Shown here: piece after piece, positions 9,271 to 43,581 of the stretch
Position numbering within the stretch: the stretch's first letter is position 1
Layout of the letters: each line of letters starts with the position of its first letter
Source of the DNA: Acidimicrobiia bacterium
GTDB taxonomy: Bacteria; Actinomycetota; Acidimicrobiia; Spongiisociales; Spongiisociaceae
DNA length: 64,000 nucleotides
Reading direction: 5' to 3'
NCBI GenBank assembly: GCA_022827785.1
Contig: JAJEIM010000006.1
Location: 15,842-79,841, forward strand
The notes under the pieces: model-generated
The model's input: the letters and a program-made list of their open reading frames with translations, nothing else
Databases searched by the model: none
What the model was told of the DNA's origin: nothing
Translations under genes and position numbers: made by a program

Positions 9271-10041
9271 ACGGCGGCGCGCCACGATCATGACGCCGGA
9301 GGAGACCCGGCTCTCCTCGCCGCCAAGGCTTCGCTCCGTGAGATGGTGTGGGACCGTCTTTCGGCCGGAGGGATCGCCCGGTTTCCGGGTGCTCGGAACC
9401 GGATCTCCAACTTCGTAGGAGCAGAAGCGGCGGCCGAGCGGTTGCGCGGCACCCGGGCGTGGCGGGAATCGGGCACGCTGAAGTCCAACCCCGACTCGCC
9501 CCAGTGGCCGGTCCGCCAGCGGGCGCTGGAGGATGGGAAGCTGGTCTTCATGGCGGTGCCCCGGCTGGCCGAGCCGGAGCCGTTCTTCTGTCTGGATCCC
9601 GATTGCCTGGCCGACTCTCCCAGGGCGGCCTCATCCATCAAGGGCGCCTCCCGCTCGGCCCGCACCGTCCCGATCGAGGACATGGAGCCGGTTGACCTGG
9701 TGATCACGGGGTGCGTGGCCGTCGACCCGGCCGGAGCCCGGCTCGGGAAGGGCGGCGGCTTCAGCGACCTCGAGTACGCCCTGGCCTGGGAGGCGGGCCT
9801 CATCGGACCGGACACCGTGGTGGCCACCACTGTCCACGAGCTCCAGGTGCTGGAGGCGGATCGGATCCCGATGGCGGACCATGACCTCCGCCTGGACCTG
9901 ATCGTCACCCCCGATCGGGTGATCGCCTGCGAGGGGTTGCGTCCCGAACCCGGGCTGCGGTGGGGGGAACTGACCGAGGAGAAGATCGCGGCCATCCCCC
10001 TGCTGTCGGCGCTCCGCCCCGCCGACGCCCACAGCCCCTGA
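9271..10041 (+). CDS. 5-formyltetrahydrofolate cyclo-ligase family protein
   Basis: The C-terminal 250 aa of ORF 8635..10041 carry 5-FCL family blocks (LREMVWDRL...GKGGGFSDLEYA...GPDTVVATTVHELQV). The N-terminal part of that ORF is antisense to modA and is rejected. The start codon is uncertain (ATG 9271 or GTG 9253). Confidence 0.65.
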   Translation, partial: TAARHDHDAGGDPALLAAKASLREMVWDRLSAGGIARFPGARNRISNFVGAEAAAERLRGTRAWRESGTLKSNPDSPQWPVRQRALEDGKLVFMAVPRLAEPEPFFCLDPDCLADSPRAASSIKGASRSARTVPIEDMEPVDLVITGCVAVDPAGARLGKGGGFSDLEYALAWEAGLIGPDTVVATTVHELQVLEADRIPMADHDLRLDLIVTPDRVIACEGLRPEPGLRWGELTEEKIAAIPLLSALRPADAHSP

Positions 10042-30403: not shown

Positions 30404-30475
30404 TTCGGATGCCGTCGGACGGGTCCCTCGCATATGCACCCACCATGGCCCCCGGCTACCATCGCGCCGATCCGG

Positions 30476-30549
30476 CGGGTGTAGTTCAGTGGTAGAACAT
30501 CAGCTTCCCAAGCTGAGAACGGGGGTTCGATTCCCCTCACCCGCTCCCC
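30476..30549 (+). tRNA. tRNA-Gly (anticodon CCC)
   Basis: Acceptor stem GCGGGTG/CACCCGC, D-loop AGTTCAGTGGTAGAAC, anticodon stem-loop CAGCTTCCCAAGCTG, T-loop GGTTCGATTCC. The 3' CCA is not encoded. Confidence 0.9.
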
Positions 30550-34910: not shown

Positions 34911-35708
34911 CTATGTCCAGCCGAAGTGGTCGATGGGGCCCTCGCCGCGGCCCAGGTTCCATCCGGCGGCGCCGGTGATGGCGCGCGATACCCAGGCTCG
35001 GGCGTCGGCGATGGCCACGATCAGGTCGGCGCCGGTGGCCAGGCGGGCCGCTACGGAGGCCGAGAGCGCGTCCCCGGTCCCGTGGACGTTCCGCGACCGT
35101 ACCCGGCGTCCCGGGAGCGCGTGGGTGTGGATCCCGTTCGAGAACACGTCCACCAGGGGCCGGTCACGGGCCATCCGCCCGCCGGTTACCAGGAAGGGTG
35201 TTCGGGTGGTGCGGGCCAGGTACTCCGCCACGGCCCGCTGGTCGCTCTCGTTCTCGACGGGTCGGCCGGCCAGCAACGCCGCCTCCCGGTGGTTGGGCGT
35301 GGCCAGGTCGGCTCGCGGGATCAGGGCTTCGAGATAGGCGTCGATGGTGGATCCGTCCACCAGCGACCTGCCGTTCCGATCGACCAGGACCGGGTCGATC
35401 ACCAGGTTGGGTAGCCGGGCCGCGCGTTCCGCCACCAGCCGGACCACCTCGGCCCGGCCCAGCAGTCCGGTCTTGGTGGCGTCGGGCGGCAGGTCGGTGG
35501 CGACCGCTTCCAGCTGGGAGGAGATCATCCCGACCGGCACCTGCTCGGCCCGAGCCACTCCCCGGGTGTTCTGGGCGGTGACGGTGGTGATCACGGTGGT
35601 GGCGAAGACGCGGTGCGCCGACAACGTCTTGAGGTCGGCCTGGATCCCGGCGCCGGCGCCGGAGTCGCTGCCGCCGATCGTCATCACCGTCTTAGGGGTA
35701 GCTGTCAT
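34911..35708 (-). CDS. thiD: hydroxymethylpyrimidine/phosphomethylpyrimidine kinase
   Basis: Ribokinase-like PfkB fold with the ThiD blocks [19 protein letters not shown] and the anion hole GTGDALSA. Its ATG overlaps the thiQ stop (ATGA). Confidence 0.85.
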
Positions 35709-37501
35709 GTGCTCCAGCCGAGGAAGGTGTCTTGGGCGGTCCCGCGCTCGCAGCCGGATCGCTGCACGATGCCTACCCGGTCCGATTCAACCGTGGTATT
35801 GGTGCACCCGCCGGCATCGTAGGCCTGGTAGGTCACGCGGCCACGGTCCACCGGGACGTGCTCGCCATCGAGGCCGAGCGCGGACGGCCCGCTCCACCGT
35901 ACTTCGATCGGAGGGTCGTCGCACCGGGTGAATAGCTCGGACCACACGAGCGGCGATCGAAGATGGTCGCCGTCGCACAGGAGGTGGCGCACCACCACGT
36001 CCTCGCCGGTGTCAAGGCCCTCGATCCTGGCCGGCCACCGGCCAAGGCGCCCCTCGCCAGGGGTGCGCGGTCCGATGGTGAGGCGGTAACGGGCCCCCGG
36101 CGCCCAAGCGAAGTCCCTGGTGTTCGGATCGAGGGGCGTGGACGGTAGGGACGACTCCGTTCCGGGCAGGATGGTGCCACCGTGGTCGTAACCACCCCAG
36201 TTGACGGCCAGGTTCCGGGGATGGCGGGGATTCCACTGGATCCCGGTGTGGGCGCCTCCATGGTGGCGACCGGGCGACCAGAAGGATGCCTGGATCGCGA
36301 AGAAGGCCAGGCGGCTGACCTCCGGCGGCTTCAGCACTTCCAGGATCACCGACACGGATGCCAGGGGGACATCGGGGACATCCCACCAGACATGGAACGA
36401 GGAAGCCCCGTTAGGGGATGGTGGTAATCCTCGGTCGCGAACGGGGCCCGTGACCACCGGTTCGGACCGAGTTCGAGGAGCGTCGGCGGAGCATGGCGAC
36501 TCGGGCAGCAAGACAACCCTCTCGGGATCTATCTCCACGAGCACGCGGGTTCCCCTAAGAGGACCGGTACCCGAGGTGTGCACGACAAGCGGATGGCCGG
36601 AGCAGTTCACCTCCACACGGGTCTGCCCGGCTACGAAGGTGGTCGCCTCCACCGTCCCGGCCAGGTTCCCGGTCGGGCTCAAGGCGGCGCCATCGGGCCG
36701 GATGACCACCCGGTGGCGGCCGTCCGGAAGATGTGTAGGGACTGCGCCCCAGGGGGTAGTGGCGAAACCGGCCCTCACCTCCACATCGGCGAAGTTATCG
36801 AACCCGAGGAAGCGGGCCACGAACTCGGTGGCCGGTCGTCTCCACAGTTGCTCGGGCGTGTCGACCTGGCGGATCTTTCCCCGGTGCAGGATCGCCACCC
36901 GGTCGGCGATGGCGAATGCCTCGTCCTGGTCGTGGGTTACGTAGAGCGCCGTGATCCCTATCCGCCGCAAGAGTTGGGACAGCTCGGGTACCAGCCGGGC
37001 GCGCAGGGCCCGGTCGAGAGCACCCACCGGTTCGTCGAGCATCAGTAGTTCCGGTTCGGGCGCCAGTGCCCGGGCAAGGGCGACCCGTTGCTGTTCGCCA
37101 CCCGAGAGGGACTCGATCCCGCGGTCCCCGTACCCGTGGAGGTCGACCCAAGAGAGCACCTCCGCGACGCGCTCCCGGGTTGAGTGGCGGTCCCTTCCCT
37201 GCATCCGGAGGCCGAAGGCAACGTTCTCGGCCACGCTCAGGTGGGGGAACAGCGCGTAGTCCTGGAACATCAAGCCCACCCCGCGCTGATGCACGTCGAC
37301 TCGGGTTATGTCGCGGGATGCCAATTCGATCGTCCCGGTTCCCGGCCTCTCCAAGCCGGCGATGGTCCGCAGGAGGCTCGACTTACCCGAGCCGGACGGA
37401 CCCAGCACGGCCATCACCTCCCCGGACCTCATCGACAGATCTATACCGTCCAGCGCACGGTGGTTCCCGTAGTCCAGCGTGATGTCGATCAACTCGAGCA
37501 C
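35705..37501 (-). CDS. thiQ: thiamine-type ABC transporter ATP-binding protein (ThiQ/FbpC-like) fused to a C-terminal extension of about 250 aa of unknown function
   Basis: GTG start overlapping the thiP stop (TAGTG). Walker [10 protein letters not shown], signature [15 protein letters not shown], Walker [13 protein letters not shown], and a TOBE-like domain ending about residue 345. The reading frame then continues without a stop for about 250 codons of protein-like sequence with high GC3. Confidence 0.75.
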
Positions 37502-39135
37502 TAGAACTCCCCGAGGCCGGCCACCCGGTAGCGGTCGATGGCCATGATTATCACTGTCGTGAGGACCATGAGCACGGTACTCAAGGCCAGTGCCTGCCCG
37601 AGATTGGCAGCCCCCGGCTGGCCGAGGAGGCGGAAGATGGCGGTAGGGATGGTCGGCCGGCCGGGTCGTATGAGGAAGGCGGTGGCTCCGAACTCGCCGA
37701 GTGACACCGCCGCCGCGAAACCGGCCCCGACCAGCGCCGCCCGGCTGATGATCGGCAGCTCCACCTCCCGGAAGACCCTCCGGGGCGAGGCTCCGAGGAC
37801 GGCGGCTGCCTCGCGGAGGCGGGGCTGCACGGATCGGAGCACCGGGGTCACCGTGCGGATCACGAACGGCGCCGCGACCACCGAATGGGCCAGCGGTATC
37901 AGCCAGACCGAAGTGCGGAGGTCCACGGGCCAATCGAAGGCGACCAGGAAGCCGAAGCCGATCGTGACCGCCGACGTACCGAGCGGGAGCATCAGGAAGG
38001 TATCGAGCCTTGCGCCCATCCGGCCGGGGCGCCGGGCGATCACCACGGCCGAGGCGAGACCGGCCGCCACGGCGGGGACCACAGCCGCCGCAGCGAACCA
38101 CAACGAGTTGACGATCGCCTCGGCGGGGTCGACGAAGGGGGTGGCGCCCCGGACCAGGCTCGCGAAATGGTCCAAACCCGGCCCGCTGGAGGTAGCGAGC
38201 GACCTCCACACGAGGGAGCCGATCGGTGCCCCGAGGTAGAGGAGCATCGAGGCGACGGTCGTTCCCACCACCAGGTACTGCCCCGCGGTGGCGGGCCGGC
38301 GGGCGACGGTGCGGCTCGAACGCAGGGGAAGCCGCCGAGCGTGGCGCCGCTGGAGGCGGGTGTACGCCCACAGGGCCGTCGCCACCCCCGCCATCTGGAC
38401 GAGCGCCAAAGCAGCGGAGGCGGCCAGGTCGAGGTTGATGGTGGCCTCCCGCCACACTGCCACCTCGATGGTTGCGTAGCTGAAGCCTCCCAGGATCAGC
38501 ACCACCCCGAAAGACGTGAAAGTGAACAGGAACACGATGGAGGCGGCCGCGGCGATCGAGGGGAGCAGGAGGGGTAGCGTGACTCGCAGGAAGGCCTGTG
38601 CCCGGTTGGCGCCCAACGCCCGTGCGGCCTCCTCGAGCCGCGGATCGAGGAGCTCCCAGAAGCTGCCCACCATGCGCACCACCACCGCGTAGTTGAAGAA
38701 CACGTGGGCGATGAGGATCGCCCAGGCCGTCTGGCGCAGATCCACGCCCAGCGGCCCGCCTGGACCCAGTAGGGCCAGGTAAGCGGCCCCCACGACCACC
38801 GTGGGCAGGACGAACGGGACCGTGACCGCCGCCCTCAGCAGCCTCCGGCCGAAGAACGAGTACCTGGCCAGGACGTAGGCGCCGGGCAGGGCGAACACCA
38901 GGGTGGCGGCTGTGGAGGCTGTGGCCTGCCACACCGTGAACCAGGCCGCGCGGCGGAGCGATCCCTTGGTGGCGATCTCCACGAACGGGGAGAGGTCCAG
39001 ACCGCCGTCGAGGGTCAGGCTCCGCAGCACCACCCGGACCAGCGGGTAGGCGAATGCGAGCCCGAAGAAGACGATGGGGACGGCGACCAGCCACCGTCCC
39101 GTCCCGTTCTTCAGGAGGCTACGACCTCGATCCAT
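37501..39135 (-). CDS. thiP: thiamine-type ABC transporter permease (duplicated TMD, ThiP/FbpB-like)
   Basis: About 544 aa with two ABC permease halves, each carrying an EAA loop (EAARALGAN..., EAAAVLGASPRRVF). Start at the internal MDRGRSLL. The 150 codons of the track ORF upstream of this overlap thiB and are rejected. Confidence 0.8.
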   Translation of the reverse strand: MDRGRSLLKNGTGRWLVAVPIVFFGLAFAYPLVRVVLRSLTLDGGLDLSPFVEIATKGSLRRAAWFTVWQATASTAATLVFALPGAYVLARYSFFGRRLLRAAVTVPFVLPTVVVGAAYLALLGPGGPLGVDLRQTAWAILIAHVFFNYAVVVRMVGSFWELLDPRLEEAARALGANRAQAFLRVTLPLLLPSIAAAASIVFLFTFTSFGVVLILGGFSYATIEVAVWREATINLDLAASAALALVQMAGVATALWAYTRLQRRHARRLPLRSSRTVARRPATAGQYLVVGTTVASMLLYLGAPIGSLVWRSLATSSGPGLDHFASLVRGATPFVDPAEAIVNSLWFAAAAVVPAVAAGLASAVVIARRPGRMGARLDTFLMLPLGTSAVTIGFGFLVAFDWPVDLRTSVWLIPLAHSVVAAPFVIRTVTPVLRSVQPRLREAAAVLGASPRRVFREVELPIISRAALVGAGFAAAVSLGEFGATAFLIRPGRPTIPTAIFRLLGQPGAANLGQALALSTVLMVLTTVIIMAIDRYRVAGLGEF

Positions 39136-40160
39136 TCCTCGATCCAGCGCGACCGGTTGGCGTCTATCTCTCCGGGAGCCACCGCAGCCGGCTGGTCCGG
39201 TATCTGGGTGTACCTGACGAACTCGTCGGGCAACTCGGCCTTCTCGTTGGCGGGGAAGACGAACATGTTGAGCGGAATGTCCTCCTGGAAGGTGAGCCCG
39301 AGCATGAAATCGACCAGCTGCCGGGCCGCGTTGGGAACCGGCGTTCCTGCCAGGATCCCGGCGAACTCGATCTGGCGGAAACATCCGGCCAGCACCACCC
39401 CCGTGGGCGCCTCGGTGACCGGCGGGTCGGCGTAGATCACCTCGGCCGGAGGCGACGATGCATACGACACCACGATCGGACGGTCCCCGCCTCCCGACCC
39501 GCCGGAGAAGGAACCGTAGTAGGCATCCTCCCACCCGGCCGTGACCAGTACATCGTTGGCCACCAGGTCCGTCCAGAAGCTCTGCCACGGGTAGTCGCCG
39601 TCTTCGCCGAAGGTGGCGATGGTCGCCAGCAGGAACGCCAGGCCGGGGGACGACGTGCCCGGATGCTCCACCACGAGCAATCCGGCGTATTCGGGGTCGG
39701 TTAGATCTCTCAGGGTGGAGGGTGGCTGGAGGCCCATCCCCGCCAGACCGGCGATGTCGTAGTTGAGGCAGACGTCCCCGAAATCGATCGGGGTCACCCT
39801 CGTGTCGAGTTCCAACGAGTCCGGAACGTCGGCGAGCCCGGGCGACTCGTACTCCTCGAACAGATCCTCGTCGAGGGCACGGCCCAGGAAGGTGTTGTCG
39901 ATGCCGAACATGACGTCCGCCACCGGGTTGTCCTTCGTGAGCACCGCCTGATTGACCATGGTGCCGGCGTCCCCGGCCTCCAGGTGCTCGACGGTATGTC
40001 CGGTCTCCGCCTCGAACGCCGCAAGCGTCCCCTCGCTGAGGTAGAAGGAGTCGTGGGTGACCAGCCGGATCGTCTGGGGACCCGAGTCCTCCGGCGTGTC
40101 CTCACCGCATCCGGCAATCATCACCACCAGGGCGACGAGGGCAATCCCGAACCTTCTCAT
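39111..40160 (-). CDS. thiB: thiamine/Fe3+-type ABC transporter substrate-binding lipoprotein (TbpA/ThiB-like)
   Basis: Start at the internal MRRFGIALVALVVMIAGCGE (signal peptide plus lipobox). The periplasmic binding protein sequence is of the TbpA family. It lies directly downstream of a TPP riboswitch. Confidence 0.8.
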   Translation of the reverse strand: MRRFGIALVALVVMIAGCGEDTPEDSGPQTIRLVTHDSFYLSEGTLAAFEAETGHTVEHLEAGDAGTMVNQAVLTKDNPVADVMFGIDNTFLGRALDEDLFEEYESPGLADVPDSLELDTRVTPIDFGDVCLNYDIAGLAGMGLQPPSTLRDLTDPEYAGLLVVEHPGTSSPGLAFLLATIATFGEDGDYPWQSFWTDLVANDVLVTAGWEDAYYGSFSGGSGGGDRPIVVSYASSPPAEVIYADPPVTEAPTGVVLAGCFRQIEFAGILAGTPVPNAARQLVDFMLGLTFQEDIPLNMFVFPANEKAELPDEFVRYTQIPDQPAAVAPGEIDANRSRWIEEWIEVVAS

Positions 40161-40199
40161 GCGCGCTCCTTCCGCCGGCCGGTTAGCGGGGGGAGGGGC

Positions 40200-40300
40200 G
40201 GAGACAACTTCCTGCGCCGGCATTATCCGGATCAGGTTCCAACGGTCGGAGACCTGCGGTCTCCCTCTCAGCCCTTCCCGGGCTCCCGTGCTTGGCACAA
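40200..40300 (-). promoter_or_regulatory. TPP (THI-box) riboswitch
   Basis: The reverse complement reads CACGGGAGCCCGGGAAGGGCUGAGAGGGAGACCGCAGGUCUCCGACCGUUGGAACCUGAUCCGGAUAAUGCCGGCGCAGGAAG. It contains the invariant CUGAGA and ACCUGAUC(C/U)GGAUAAUGCC(A/G)GCG(C/U)AGG elements. About 45 nt downstream lies the thiB SD GGAAGGAG, with a possible CUCCGCC anti-SD. Confidence 0.85.
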
Positions 40301-40693: not shown

Positions 40694-41491
40694 ATGTCCA
40701 GCAGTTCACCTCGACCGGTCGTGCGGATCAGCGCGGGGGAGACCGTAGAGCGGGAGGATCTGCTTCCGGCGGAGGAGCCGGTCGAATTCCGGCTCCAAGG
40801 GGTCCCGATTGCGGTCCTGATGCGGACTCCGGGCCATGATGAGGAGTTGGCCCGGGGCTTCGCCCTTACCGAGGGCATCATCCTGCGTCCCGAGGAACTG
40901 GTGGCAGTCCGGGCTTTGCCGGGCCTGGACGGGGCAGGACGCTACGACCTGGTCCTCGCCGATGGGATCCGTGTTGACGAGGAGCAGTTCCGCCGCAACC
41001 TCTACGCCACCTCCTCGTGCGGGGTGTGCGGCAAGGCCTCCATCGATGCGGTCCGGGTGGCGGCGCCGCCCCTTCCGACCGGTCCGGTCATTCCGGCCGG
41101 GCTGCTGCTGGAACTTGTGGAGGCGATGCGCTCGGCCCAGGCCGGATTCGACGCCACCGGCGGGCTCCACGCCGCCGCCGCATTCACCGCGGAGGGCGAG
41201 TTCCTGGGTGTCCGCGAAGACGTGGGCCGGCACAACGCCATGGACAAGCTGGTGGGCGTACTCACGTCCCGCCACTGGCCCCTGGCGGAGATGGTGGTCA
41301 CCGTCTCCGGCCGGGTGTCGTTCGAGCTGGTTCAGAAGGCGGCGGTGGCCGGGATCAGCGTTCTGGCCGGCGTGTCGGCCGCCTCCTCCCTGGCGGTCGA
41401 CCTCGCCGATGAGCTCGGCCTGACCGTGGCGGGCTTCGTCAGGCCGGGCGGCTTCAACCTCTACACCCATCCCCACCGCATAGCGCCTTGA
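40694..41491 (+). CDS. fdhD: formate dehydrogenase accessory sulfurtransferase
   Basis: FdhD signature SSCGVCGK with catalytic Cys, and GGLHAAA...GRHNAMDK. Confidence 0.85.
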   Translation: MSSSSPRPVVRISAGETVEREDLLPAEEPVEFRLQGVPIAVLMRTPGHDEELARGFALTEGIILRPEELVAVRALPGLDGAGRYDLVLADGIRVDEEQFRRNLYATSSCGVCGKASIDAVRVAAPPLPTGPVIPAGLLLELVEAMRSAQAGFDATGGLHAAAAFTAEGEFLGVREDVGRHNAMDKLVGVLTSRHWPLAEMVVTVSGRVSFELVQKAAVAGISVLAGVSAASSLAVDLADELGLTVAGFVRPGGFNLYTHPHRIAP

Positions 41492-41590
41492 GGCTGCCGA
41501 GACCCTAGGTGCACACCCCGGGTTCTTCCCTATCCGGGCCGTCCCGCGCTGGAGATGGATGACCGATGAAGGTGATCCATCCCGGTTACG

Positions 41591-42241
41591 ATGCCGTGGG
41601 TGCGCTTCGTGTTGGACAGCGATCAGAATCGGGCGGCCTTCCGCGAGGCCGGTAGCTCATTCATGGACACGGTGAGCCGGATTCCGCCGGATGTGCTGGA
41701 CGATCCGGGGCTGGGGGTGTGGAGCGTTCGGGAGTTGATAGGGCACACCTGCCGCGCCCTGCTCACGGTGGAGCAGTATGCGGGCCGTGAGGCCGGCGTA
41801 CCGGGTCGGATGACCGGGCCGGCGGACTACTTCTGCGAGGTTCTAAGGGATAGGAGCATCCATGGAGCCGTTGCCGAACGCGCCGCCGACGCCGCCGCCG
41901 CTCTGGGCGACGATCCGGCATCGGCCGTGGCCGGGATCGTGGATGGCCTGTCCCGCCTCGTGGATGCGCTGCCTGACGATCACTCGATGGGTACGCCGTG
42001 GGGTGAGATGAGGCTCGCCGACTACCTGCCGACCAGGACCTTCGAGTTGGTGGTTCATACCCTCGATCTCGCCGGGGCGGTGGGCCGGGTCGGACCGGTG
42101 CCCGAGCCGGCTCTGTCGGTTGCGCTGTGGCTGGCGACCGAGATCGCGGCGCGATCGGGGCGGGCCGAGAATCTGTTGATGGCCCTGGCCGGTCGGGCGC
42201 CGCTCCCCCCGAATCTCCTCGGTCTGGGACCGGACTCCTAG
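41591..42241 (+). CDS. mycothiol-dependent maleylpyruvate isomerase N-terminal domain family protein (DinB_2-like)
   Basis: [10 protein letters not shown] metal-binding His context typical of TIGR03083/DinB_2 proteins of Actinobacteria. Confidence 0.6.
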
Positions 42242-42717
42242 CCGTGCTCGGTATCGCCCTCCAATAGCTGGAGGATGTGCGGCAGCAGCGGTTCGAGTGC
42301 GTCCAGGCCCTCGGCCACCGCTTTCGGGCTGCCGGGGAGGTTCACAACCAGGCAGGCGCCGATCACCCCTGACACGCCGCGTGACAGGGAGGCCATGGGT
42401 GTGTGGCGCAGGCCTTCGGCCCGGATCAGTTCCGAAAGGCCGGCCGCCGGCCGGTCGATCAGGGCGGCGGTTGCCTCGGGGGTCACGTCCCTGGGTCCGA
42501 AGCCCGTACCGCCGGTGGTGATGATCAGCCGACGTCGTGGGGCCAGGCGCGCCAGCAACTCCTCGATAGTCTCCCGGTCATCGGGGACCACATGGCGGTC
42601 GACCCGGTAAGCCATGCCGGAAAGCCGGGCGGCCAGAACGTCCCCCGATCTGTCGGCCCGCGTTCCGTGGGTCACCCCGTCGCTGACGGTCACGGCAGAA
42701 GCCCTGATGTTGTCCAT
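42238..42717 (-). CDS. mog: molybdenum cofactor biosynthesis protein MogA/MoaB
   Basis: MoaB/MogA fold with the [14 protein letters not shown] motif. Start at the internal [11 protein letters not shown]. Confidence 0.8.
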
Positions 42718-42792
42718 GGCCCCCATGCTACGTGCCCGTCGCGGCGCACCCCTCGCCCGATGCCAGCCACGGACCACTAGCCTACCGGCCGC

Positions 42793-43581
42793 GTGTCCTG
42801 GATCCTCCTTACCAACGACGACGGCGTGGACAGTCCCGCCCTCCCACCCTTCCGAGCCGCCCTCGGATCCCTGGGGGAGGTGCGCACGGTGGTTCCCGCC
42901 GGACAGCGAAGCTGGATCGGGAAGGCCCTGACCCGTTTCGAGCCCATCGAGGTGGCCGAAGTCGACCAGGCCGGCGCCACCGTGGTGACCGTGTCGGGCA
43001 CTCCGGCCGATGCCGTGCAGGTGGCGGCCGGATATTTCGGGTCACTGCCGAGTCTGGTGGTCTCCGGCATCAACATCGGTTACAACCACGGCGCCGGCTA
43101 CATCATCAGCTCCGGGACCGTCGGAGCGGCGTTCGAAGGATGGGAGTTGGGGATTCCCTCCGTCGCTTTCTCCACGGGTGTGCGGGGAAGCTGGCACACC
43201 TGGTACCCGTTGATGCGATCCGCTTCCTCTGCGCCGGCTTGGCAGCGTCTGGCGGCGGTCTGCTCCGACATCCTCGGCGATCTGATCGACGCCGACCTCT
43301 CCGCCGACGTGGTCACGGTCAACCTCCCGTGGGAGGCCGACCTCGGCACGCCCCGCCGGGTGGTGCCGCCCGCCCGGGTCACCTACGGGCAGATGCACCA
43401 TCGCCTTCCGGACGGGACCTTCACCCACAACTACCAGGAGGACTTCGGAGATGTCCCGCTGGATGGCACCGACATTGGTGTGAATCATGCGGGCGGGATC
43501 GCCATCACCCCGCTGATGGTCCCGGCTTCGCCCCCGGTGGCGGAGGAGGCCAGAGCCCGGCTGGAACGCTTTCGGACCTGA
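42793..43581 (+). CDS. surE: 5'/3'-nucleotidase SurE
   Basis: GTG start. [17 protein letters not shown] is the SurE N-terminal DDG motif. GINIGYNHG. Confidence 0.85.

Follow-up and report, generated by a model that had tools for sequence, protein, structure and literature searches.

When the ATPase gene of a transporter runs on, without a stop codon, through some 250 further codons, is it a real gene fusion or the trace of an error, and what would the added part do there? This question is raised by a gene in the window, by which we mean the whole stretch analysed here: 64,000 nt of DNA of an Acidimicrobiia bacterium (Spongiisociaceae), from assembly GCA_022827785.1 (contig JAJEIM010000006.1, positions 15,842-79,841, forward strand). 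The gene encodes a ThiQ-like ATP-binding cassette (ABC) ATPase, within an operon that is headed by a thiamine diphosphate (TPP) riboswitch and ends in thiD. Judging from the comparison of related sequences, the fusion is real and evolutionarily fixed, and we consider it highly probable that the fixed gene carries an autonomous, cytoplasmic, DUF3472-like module on a flexible tether. The whole explanation that we favour, in which operon genes were merged and the module acts on a pyrimidine precursor, has in our estimate a probability of roughly 0.5.

The preliminary description had seen here an ABC ATPase with a TOBE domain and an in-frame extension that ends in an ATGA shared with thiD. This was correct: the minus-strand open reading frame (ORF) is free of stops down to 35705 and counts 598 codons from a GTG at 37501, with a folded extension of 246 residues. 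The GTG overlaps the permease stop codon as TAGTG, the first base of the start being the last base of the stop, and the stop of the fused gene overlaps the start of thiD in the ATGA (GGAGCACATGACAGCT). The boundaries first proposed were right in outline and needed small corrections, which put the TOBE end at about 36506 (residue 332), the tether at about 36446-36505 and the folded part at 35708-36445. The gene and its parts are as follows, with predictions from AlphaFold2 (AF2) and its per-residue confidence (predicted local distance difference test, pLDDT).

35705..37501, minus strand: fused gene, ABC ATPase + TOBE + tether + DUF3472-like domain, 598 amino acids (aa) + stop
36797..37501, minus strand: nucleotide-binding domain (NBD), residues 1-235 (Pfam ABC_tran, E = 2.5e-35; AF2 pLDDT >90)
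36506..36796, minus strand: TOBE-type beta domain, residues 236-332 (Pfam TOBE_2 at 265-332; AF2 all-beta, pLDDT >90)
36446..36505, minus strand: disordered Pro/Ser/Ala/Arg-rich tether, residues ~333-352, the former stop/start junction (AF2 pLDDT <50 at 336-350)
35708..36445, minus strand: DUF3472-like beta jelly-roll domain, residues 353-598

Regarding the ATPase half, ABC_tran matches residues 17-159 of the 598-aa protein, and the translation has, within a single NBD, the whole set of motifs of an ABC importer ATPase: Walker A (GPSGSGKS), Q-loop, LSGGQ-type signature (LSGGEQQR), Walker B (LLMLDEP) and H-loop (THD). The TOBE_2 score is slightly under the Pfam cut-off (20.3 versus 21 bits); we assign the domain with the help of its all-beta AF2 fold, and several homologues have precomputed PF08402 matches. 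As a ThiQ equivalog the protein fails, scoring 163.2 bits against the TIGR01277 cut-off of 245.05 and 157.2 against 298 for PRK10771, and it is assigned to thiamine transport by its context only, that is, by a substrate-binding protein (SBP) that passes TIGR01254 and by the TPP riboswitch. The G+C content at third codon positions over the extension (0.68-0.84, versus 0.81 for the whole gene) and at second positions (about 0.5, as usual for coding sequence in this genome) is like that of the ATPase, thiD and the permease and therefore the frame is coding. The overlapping ORFs in other frames, already described as high-GC noise, are ordinary high-GC shadows. A separate internal start for the module was also considered and rejected, because no Shine-Dalgarno-like sequence precedes the in-frame GTG at 36457.

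Could the fusion still be an error of assembly or sequencing, or have come about in the window genome alone, by a recent frameshift that joined two genes and turned them into a pseudogene? Two related loci (L011 and L012) do have two genes there and metagenome assemblies are the source of all the data, which speaks for such an error. Nevertheless, the same fusion was found far beyond the window. A search with the whole protein retrieved an identical one of 598 aa (P0121, in NCBI and ENA), which is also encoded in GCA_022821195.1, and 16 more clusters of 598-601 aa (P0122-P0137) with 72-92% identity and 100% coverage. With clusters built at 90% identity, the fused form altogether amounts to 17 protein clusters, encoded on some 25 contigs that stem from independent projects, including one hifiasm contig (L095) and one chromosome-level assembly, and at the DNA level the ORF is uninterrupted in L014, L015 and L095 (600, 598 and 601 codons respectively). 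Furthermore, in comparison with these three loci the NBD has a ratio of nonsynonymous to synonymous substitution rates (dN/dS) of 0.18-0.20 and the extension one of 0.19-0.24, which means that purifying selection is equally strong on the two halves. Only the 20-codon junction evolves nearly freely (dN/dS about 0.67 or saturated), and the tether sequence differs between the fused homologues. Finally, the junction of L011 contains stops in every one of the three frames. The artefact is thus effectively refuted and we give it next to no weight.

One of these fused genes deserves a remark of its own. Between L014:5954-7753 (OZ219923.1) and the window the synonymous distance (dS) is 0.93 in the NBD, with 76% aa identity, and 0.25 in the jelly-roll half, with 91%. 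The L014 gene is thus a mosaic, which suggests recombination with a breakpoint near the tether and may account for the conflict between the NBD tree and the module tree.

That an independent gene had been merged into the ATPase gene was first mentioned as an alternative to a fusion; it turns out to describe a past evolutionary event, but not a sequencing artefact. The orthologs, whose fused or separate state had been named as a check, show both states: they are fused in the 17 clusters, whereas L011 and L012 have a separate, overlapping gene. In L011 and L012/L013 the SBP and permease genes are followed by an ATPase gene that has a stop codon to itself, then by the separate gene and thiD. The thiQ genes of L011 and L012 encode 338 and 340 aa, and the separate genes, of 262 and 276 aa, lie in another frame with an overlap of 1-4 nt. 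A single-base error behind the unfused state of L011, a long-read contig of 3x coverage, was rejected on account of the stops in all three junction frames. The nearest unfused ATPases (338-340 aa) end where the TOBE domain ends, and the genes are also separate in the more distant L021, L022, L023, L033 and L041; since the separate state is found in both sister and more distant loci, the fused state is derived. As an additional observation, L021:2865-3350 and L041:6436-6906 encode a hydrophobic, presumably membrane, protein of 156-161 aa between thiQ and the jelly-roll gene.

The fusion has occurred more than once. In the tree of extension sequences the window groups with P0122-P0136 in a single clade, while P0137 (L095) falls among unfused lineages. 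At the nucleotide level L095 shares 81% identity with L012, which is unfused, but a net deletion of 16 nt has removed the ATGA from the L095 junction, and the tethers of L095 and the window are unrelated in sequence. L095 is therefore a second, independent fusion, which makes at least two in total. In both, small indels at the overlapping stop/start junction of two translationally coupled operon genes produced the fusion, and the old junction is the tether of about 20 residues that is seen now.

The extension and thiD have also outlived the loss of the transporter in several relatives (L006, L001). L006 is syntenic with the window, and has lost what corresponds to window 40602-37106 (riboswitch, SBP, permease and N-terminal NBD) together with two further pieces of the ATPase. 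What is left, L006:1471-2745 (Logan SRR26713618), is a decayed version of the operon at window 40602-35705, reduced by a three-step deletion and with ATPase remnants out of frame, where the TOBE tail and the jelly-roll gene still share one frame, with thiD after them. Similarly, the stand-alone genes of L001 and L002 begin within the TOBE tail or the tether of a fused ancestor.

What kind of domain was added? The last 252 aa had no match in the Pfam and NCBIfam scans, and sequence and profile searches of the module against PDB sequences gave one chance match or none. The fold, which the preliminary description could not name, was obtained by modelling, as it had proposed for the last 250 aa or so: AF2 on the module alone (with an alignment of 87 sequences) predicted with confidence an all-beta sandwich, with a pLDDT of 96.4 and a predicted template modelling score (pTM) of 0.92, and Foldseek on this model agrees with a DUF3472-like jelly roll, the fold of the solved DUF3472 structures. 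The full-length model has a mean pLDDT of 93, residues 336-350 below 50 and a pTM of 0.62. Two confident halves, a low-pLDDT linker and this pTM indicate that two rigid parts are joined by a flexible tether.

At the level of profiles, the window copy does not match PF11958 (DUF3472) at E <= 1. This profile is matched by 26 of 87 close family members, six of them above the gathering score of 24.8 bits, and the window module is in all likelihood a divergent cytoplasmic subfamily of DUF3472. The family is small: the representatives that an exhaustive profile search gave at E <= 0.001 number only 467, most of them of 220-290 aa, and the genome scan gave 428 relatives. Of the 80 loci listed, nearly all come from metagenome-assembled genomes of Acidimicrobiia, and the closest among the matches listed are sponge-associated (Ca. 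Spongiisociaceae). In about 120 of 156 family proteins only 10-29 residues precede the first conserved motif (S-x-NGASSFH), too short an N-terminus for a signal peptide, which implies a cytoplasmic location; clear signal peptides occur in a minority. Large members carry, besides this domain at their end, GH16 + metallophosphatase, GH5, GDSL lipase, PKD, LamG, cadherin or DUF11/DUF7507 domains. P0288, P0292, P0303, P0319, P0321, P0336, P0343, P0356 and P0358 are such large forms, and short versions with a signal peptide exist too; together these forms are an extracellular branch of the family.

The family has invariant residues (numbered in the 252-residue query: Q58, H72, Q76, N88, Y92, Y126, W143, R159, W174 and E176), E176 being the single invariant acidic one. 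They alternate along neighbouring strands, which would place them on one conserved face of the sheet. The module folds independently, is under the same constraint as the ATPase and, in most relatives, exists as a protein of its own. Therefore, it is better seen as a passenger domain tethered at the cytoplasmic face of the transporter, in two copies per NBD dimer, than as an integral regulator of the ATPase.

A full-text literature search for DUF3472 returned solely papers on centipede venom and viruses, and we compared the module with the jelly-roll enzymes of known structure. HC7 is, according to a passage in PMC13003899 that cites Narimatsu et al. 2024, a secreted di-glutamate mucinase of Bacillus cereus. 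The two DUF3472 structures, HC7 (PDB 8PMU) and Bacteroides caccae BACCAC_02064 (PDB 4QHX), have 8-14% sequence identity to the module. Unlike them, the module is cytoplasmic and has no signal peptide and no carbohydrate-binding module or DUF5077 partner; where HC7 is secreted with carbohydrate-binding modules, the module sits on a cytoplasmic ATPase, in a thiamine operon rather than in a glycan-degradation context. The catalytic pair of HC7 is Glu200 and a partner; the invariant acidic residue of the module family is E176. We also compared the module with glutamic peptidases, G1 (aspergillopepsin II, 1Y43; scytalidoglutamic peptidase, 2IFR) and G3 (neprosin, 7ZVC), which are known for secretion and acid activity (PMC3009609, PMC9343461). 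A local hhalign alignment to 1Y43_B, not significant at a probability of 0.9%, put E176 on the catalytic Glu110 and NWGGYD on AWVGID, and the catalytic Gln24 on Pro100, a residue of the L-x-G motif that is variable in the family.

What the module may do has to be asked within its operon, which on the minus strand runs from the TPP riboswitch through thiB, thiP and thiQ fused to the extension, to thiD. Apart from the fused gene, its elements are the following.

40192..40299, minus strand: TPP riboswitch aptamer at the operon head, 5' of the SBP gene (Rfam RF00059, 65.2 bits versus a gathering score of 54.3)
39111..40160, minus strand: ThiB-family substrate-binding lipoprotein, 349 aa, start placed at MRRFGIAL (NCBIfam TIGR01254, the thiamine ABC transporter SBP subfamily, 239.9 versus a cut-off of 93.4)
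37501..39135, minus strand: ThiP-like double permease, 544 aa (ORF; its stop overlaps the ATPase start)
34911..35708, minus strand: thiD, kinase of hydroxymethylpyrimidine (HMP) and HMP-P, 265 aa (NCBIfam TIGR00097, 255.8 versus a cut-off of 204.95; its start overlaps the fused-gene stop)

The permease has NCBIfam matches to ThiP and other permeases, each under the equivalog cut-off, and it shares 90% identity with the permease of L011. A Shine-Dalgarno-like GGAG lies a few bases 5' of the thiD ATG (35709-35718, minus strand), within the last codons of the fused gene, and is consistent with translational coupling. Upstream of the operon, 40694-43581 holds FdhD, a DinB-like ORF, a MoCF-biosynthesis protein and SurE. 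This FdhD/MoCF flank is shared by L006 and L096 (in L096 with SurE too), and L007 and L012 share FdhD alone. A tRNA gene at 30475-30545 (plus strand, 73.4 bits) has an equal-scoring counterpart at the syntenic place in L001 and L015, which confirms the long-range synteny of the region.

In its shared parts the system is an importer of the E. coli ThiBPQ type, with a thiamine-family SBP, a fused double permease, a canonical ATPase with TOBE and a TPP riboswitch upstream; it differs in an ATPase that stays under the ThiQ cut-off. The C-terminal TOBE domain is common to the MalK/CysA/PotA-type ATPases, to which the window ATPase adds a 246-residue non-ABC domain. In the literature we found no report of ThiQ fusions, or of this operon in sponge-associated Acidimicrobiia. 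That a TPP-riboswitch transporter operon is coupled to thiD, as first described, is confirmed; the role in thiamine or pyrimidine metabolism proposed with it is plausible but unproven. As the operon ends in thiD, its cargo would be the pyrimidine moiety, or a compound that yields it, rather than intact thiamine. In the ThiXYZ-YlmB-TenA-ThiD salvage of pyrimidines a cytoplasmic step stands between the ABC importer and ThiD. TenA (thiaminase II / aminopyrimidine aminohydrolase) and YlmB (formylaminopyrimidine deformylase) occupy the same logical slot as the module, by analogy only: TenA has an all-alpha, haem-oxygenase-like fold with a catalytic Cys and YlmB is an M20-type metallohydrolase, whereas the module is all-beta in the AF2 model, with no homology to them and no TenA match in Pfam or NCBIfam.

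The link to thiamine recurs in related genomes, whose loci were viewed over +/-7 kb. The window shares with L011, L012, L014, L015, L022, L023, L033, L041 and L095 a co-directional operon that has a TPP riboswitch at its head and the module gene placed between thiQ and thiD; the riboswitch is 5' of the SBP gene in every related transporter locus scanned (10, plus L023, L082, L095 and L096). The thiQ-module-thiD arrangement, with overlaps at both ends, extends down to 46% module identity, and 20 of the 20 thiD-adjacent loci are one deep clade. In a separate clade (L026, L048, L053 and L082) the module stands in divergent arrangement beside a riboswitch-controlled thiBPQ. There, an ORF of about 112 aa, which by eye resembles an antibiotic-biosynthesis-monooxygenase domain, separates the TPP riboswitch from the jelly-roll gene (L026:6484-6867, L053:6527-6865 and the same position in L048).

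On this basis we propose that low thiamine diphosphate would switch on thiB-thiP-thiQ::X-thiD through the riboswitch, X being the module, and that the importer would take up a thiamine-pyrimidine compound. The tethered module would bind or hydrolyse, via its conserved sheet face, this precursor or derivative to give HMP, which the co-translated ThiD would phosphorylate. The fusion would set a 1:1 stoichiometry and put the step at the mouth of the importer, but the function of the module would not need it. That the module is a cytoplasmic hydrolase or binding module which handles the imported pyrimidine before ThiD, with the fusion only co-localising the two, is a tentative assignment. Still more speculative, and in our view unlikely in full, is that the thiD-linked clade is an unrecognised thiamine-pyrimidine salvage enzyme, a non-homologous analogue of TenA/YlmB with a jelly roll of the glutamic-peptidase/GH16 type, which makes HMP for ThiD from what is imported, a product of thiamine breakdown or a conjugate of the pyrimidine, and which was tethered twice to the ATPase, in sponge-symbiont Acidimicrobiia, as a transporter-enzyme channelling unit.

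Several observations weigh against a role in pyrimidine salvage. The circular 2.4-Mb relative L096, with the same SurE-MoCF-FdhD synteny, has an otherwise identical operon, riboswitch-thiB-thiP-thiQ (337 aa)-thiD, without any jelly-roll gene (L096:2202-6815, ERZ25070917), so the operon works without the module; its thiBPQ leading directly into thiD suggests that an HMP-type cargo and not intact thiamine feeds ThiD. About 39 of 88 homologous loci are without thiamine context, with neighbours such as acyl-CoA synthetase, MMPL, PilT, CCA enzyme and GDH; among the distant homologues such loci are the majority. No TPP riboswitch was found within 7 kb of loci with the module alone or with module + thiD, in a search with Rfam on 5 loci and with our own covariance model over 900 kb, where matches of 14-17 bits were taken as chance. 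(A weak match of this model in the window itself, at 9826-9955 on the plus strand, with 16.3 bits and E 0.016, is unreported by Rfam at the gathering threshold and probably also due to chance.) Moreover, the thiD-adjacent clade keeps its downstream synteny too (4HBT, ADH, NAD-binding, ADSL), so that the adjacency of module and thiD could be vertical inheritance only. The multi-domain relatives with GH16, GH5, GDSL, PKD and LamG, and structural neighbours that act on glycans or peptides and not on small heterocycles, point to another chemistry, and the Gln-Glu dyad of the G1 (eqolisin) peptidases seems, tentatively, to be absent from the module. Lastly, the mechanism by which genes with overlapping stop and start codons become fused is an easy one, and such a fusion may be neutral.

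These observations are what would be expected if the jelly-roll protein had a role unrelated to thiamine, for example as a cytoplasmic enzyme that hydrolyses glycans or peptides or as a lectin-like protein, of a kind typical of Acidimicrobiia, and had been carried along in a vertically inherited syntenic block, its fusions being tolerated accidents. We consider this neutral explanation nearly as likely as the salvage step. Against it, the gene overlaps both its neighbours inside a riboswitch-controlled operon, its link to thiD is constant in all 20 loci of the clade, down to 46% identity, despite varying upstream genes, two independent fusions to ThiQ were retained under purifying selection and the second clade adjoins thiBPQ in a different, divergent arrangement. 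Among the distant homologues no conserved non-thiamine neighbour recurs across lineages, in a survey of cluster-level patterns only, whose crude ORF caller picked some antisense shadow ORFs. A regulatory function is a third possibility: the domain lies past TOBE at the C-terminus of an importer ATPase, and a conserved polar and aromatic surface suits ligand binding, so that it might bind TPP, thiamine or HMP and trans-inhibit the importer, as in MetN, ModC and MalK. We regard this as improbable. The regulatory domains of those proteins (C2/NIL in MetN) are integral and have a fixed dimer interface, whereas the module was ancestrally a separate gene, which is also its commonest state, and hangs on a disordered, fast-evolving tether, probably with no fixed interface (pTM 0.62); the ATPase already has a TOBE domain, and the module stays beside thiD after the deletion of the transporter.

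If the module proves unrelated to thiamine, what is left is a lineage-specific fusion of modest interest. The locus further shows that operon neighbours can be fused repeatedly through overlapping stop and start codons, and that a transporter ATPase tolerates a 27-kDa passenger. The module is a concrete candidate for a so far unassigned step of thiamine salvage. If it does act on thiamine pyrimidines, this would be the first function for the cytoplasmic branch of DUF3472, a superfamily known so far only from a secreted mucinase, and a new enzyme family would join those of vitamin B1 salvage, which shapes the exchange of vitamins in marine and host-associated communities, here among sponge symbionts.

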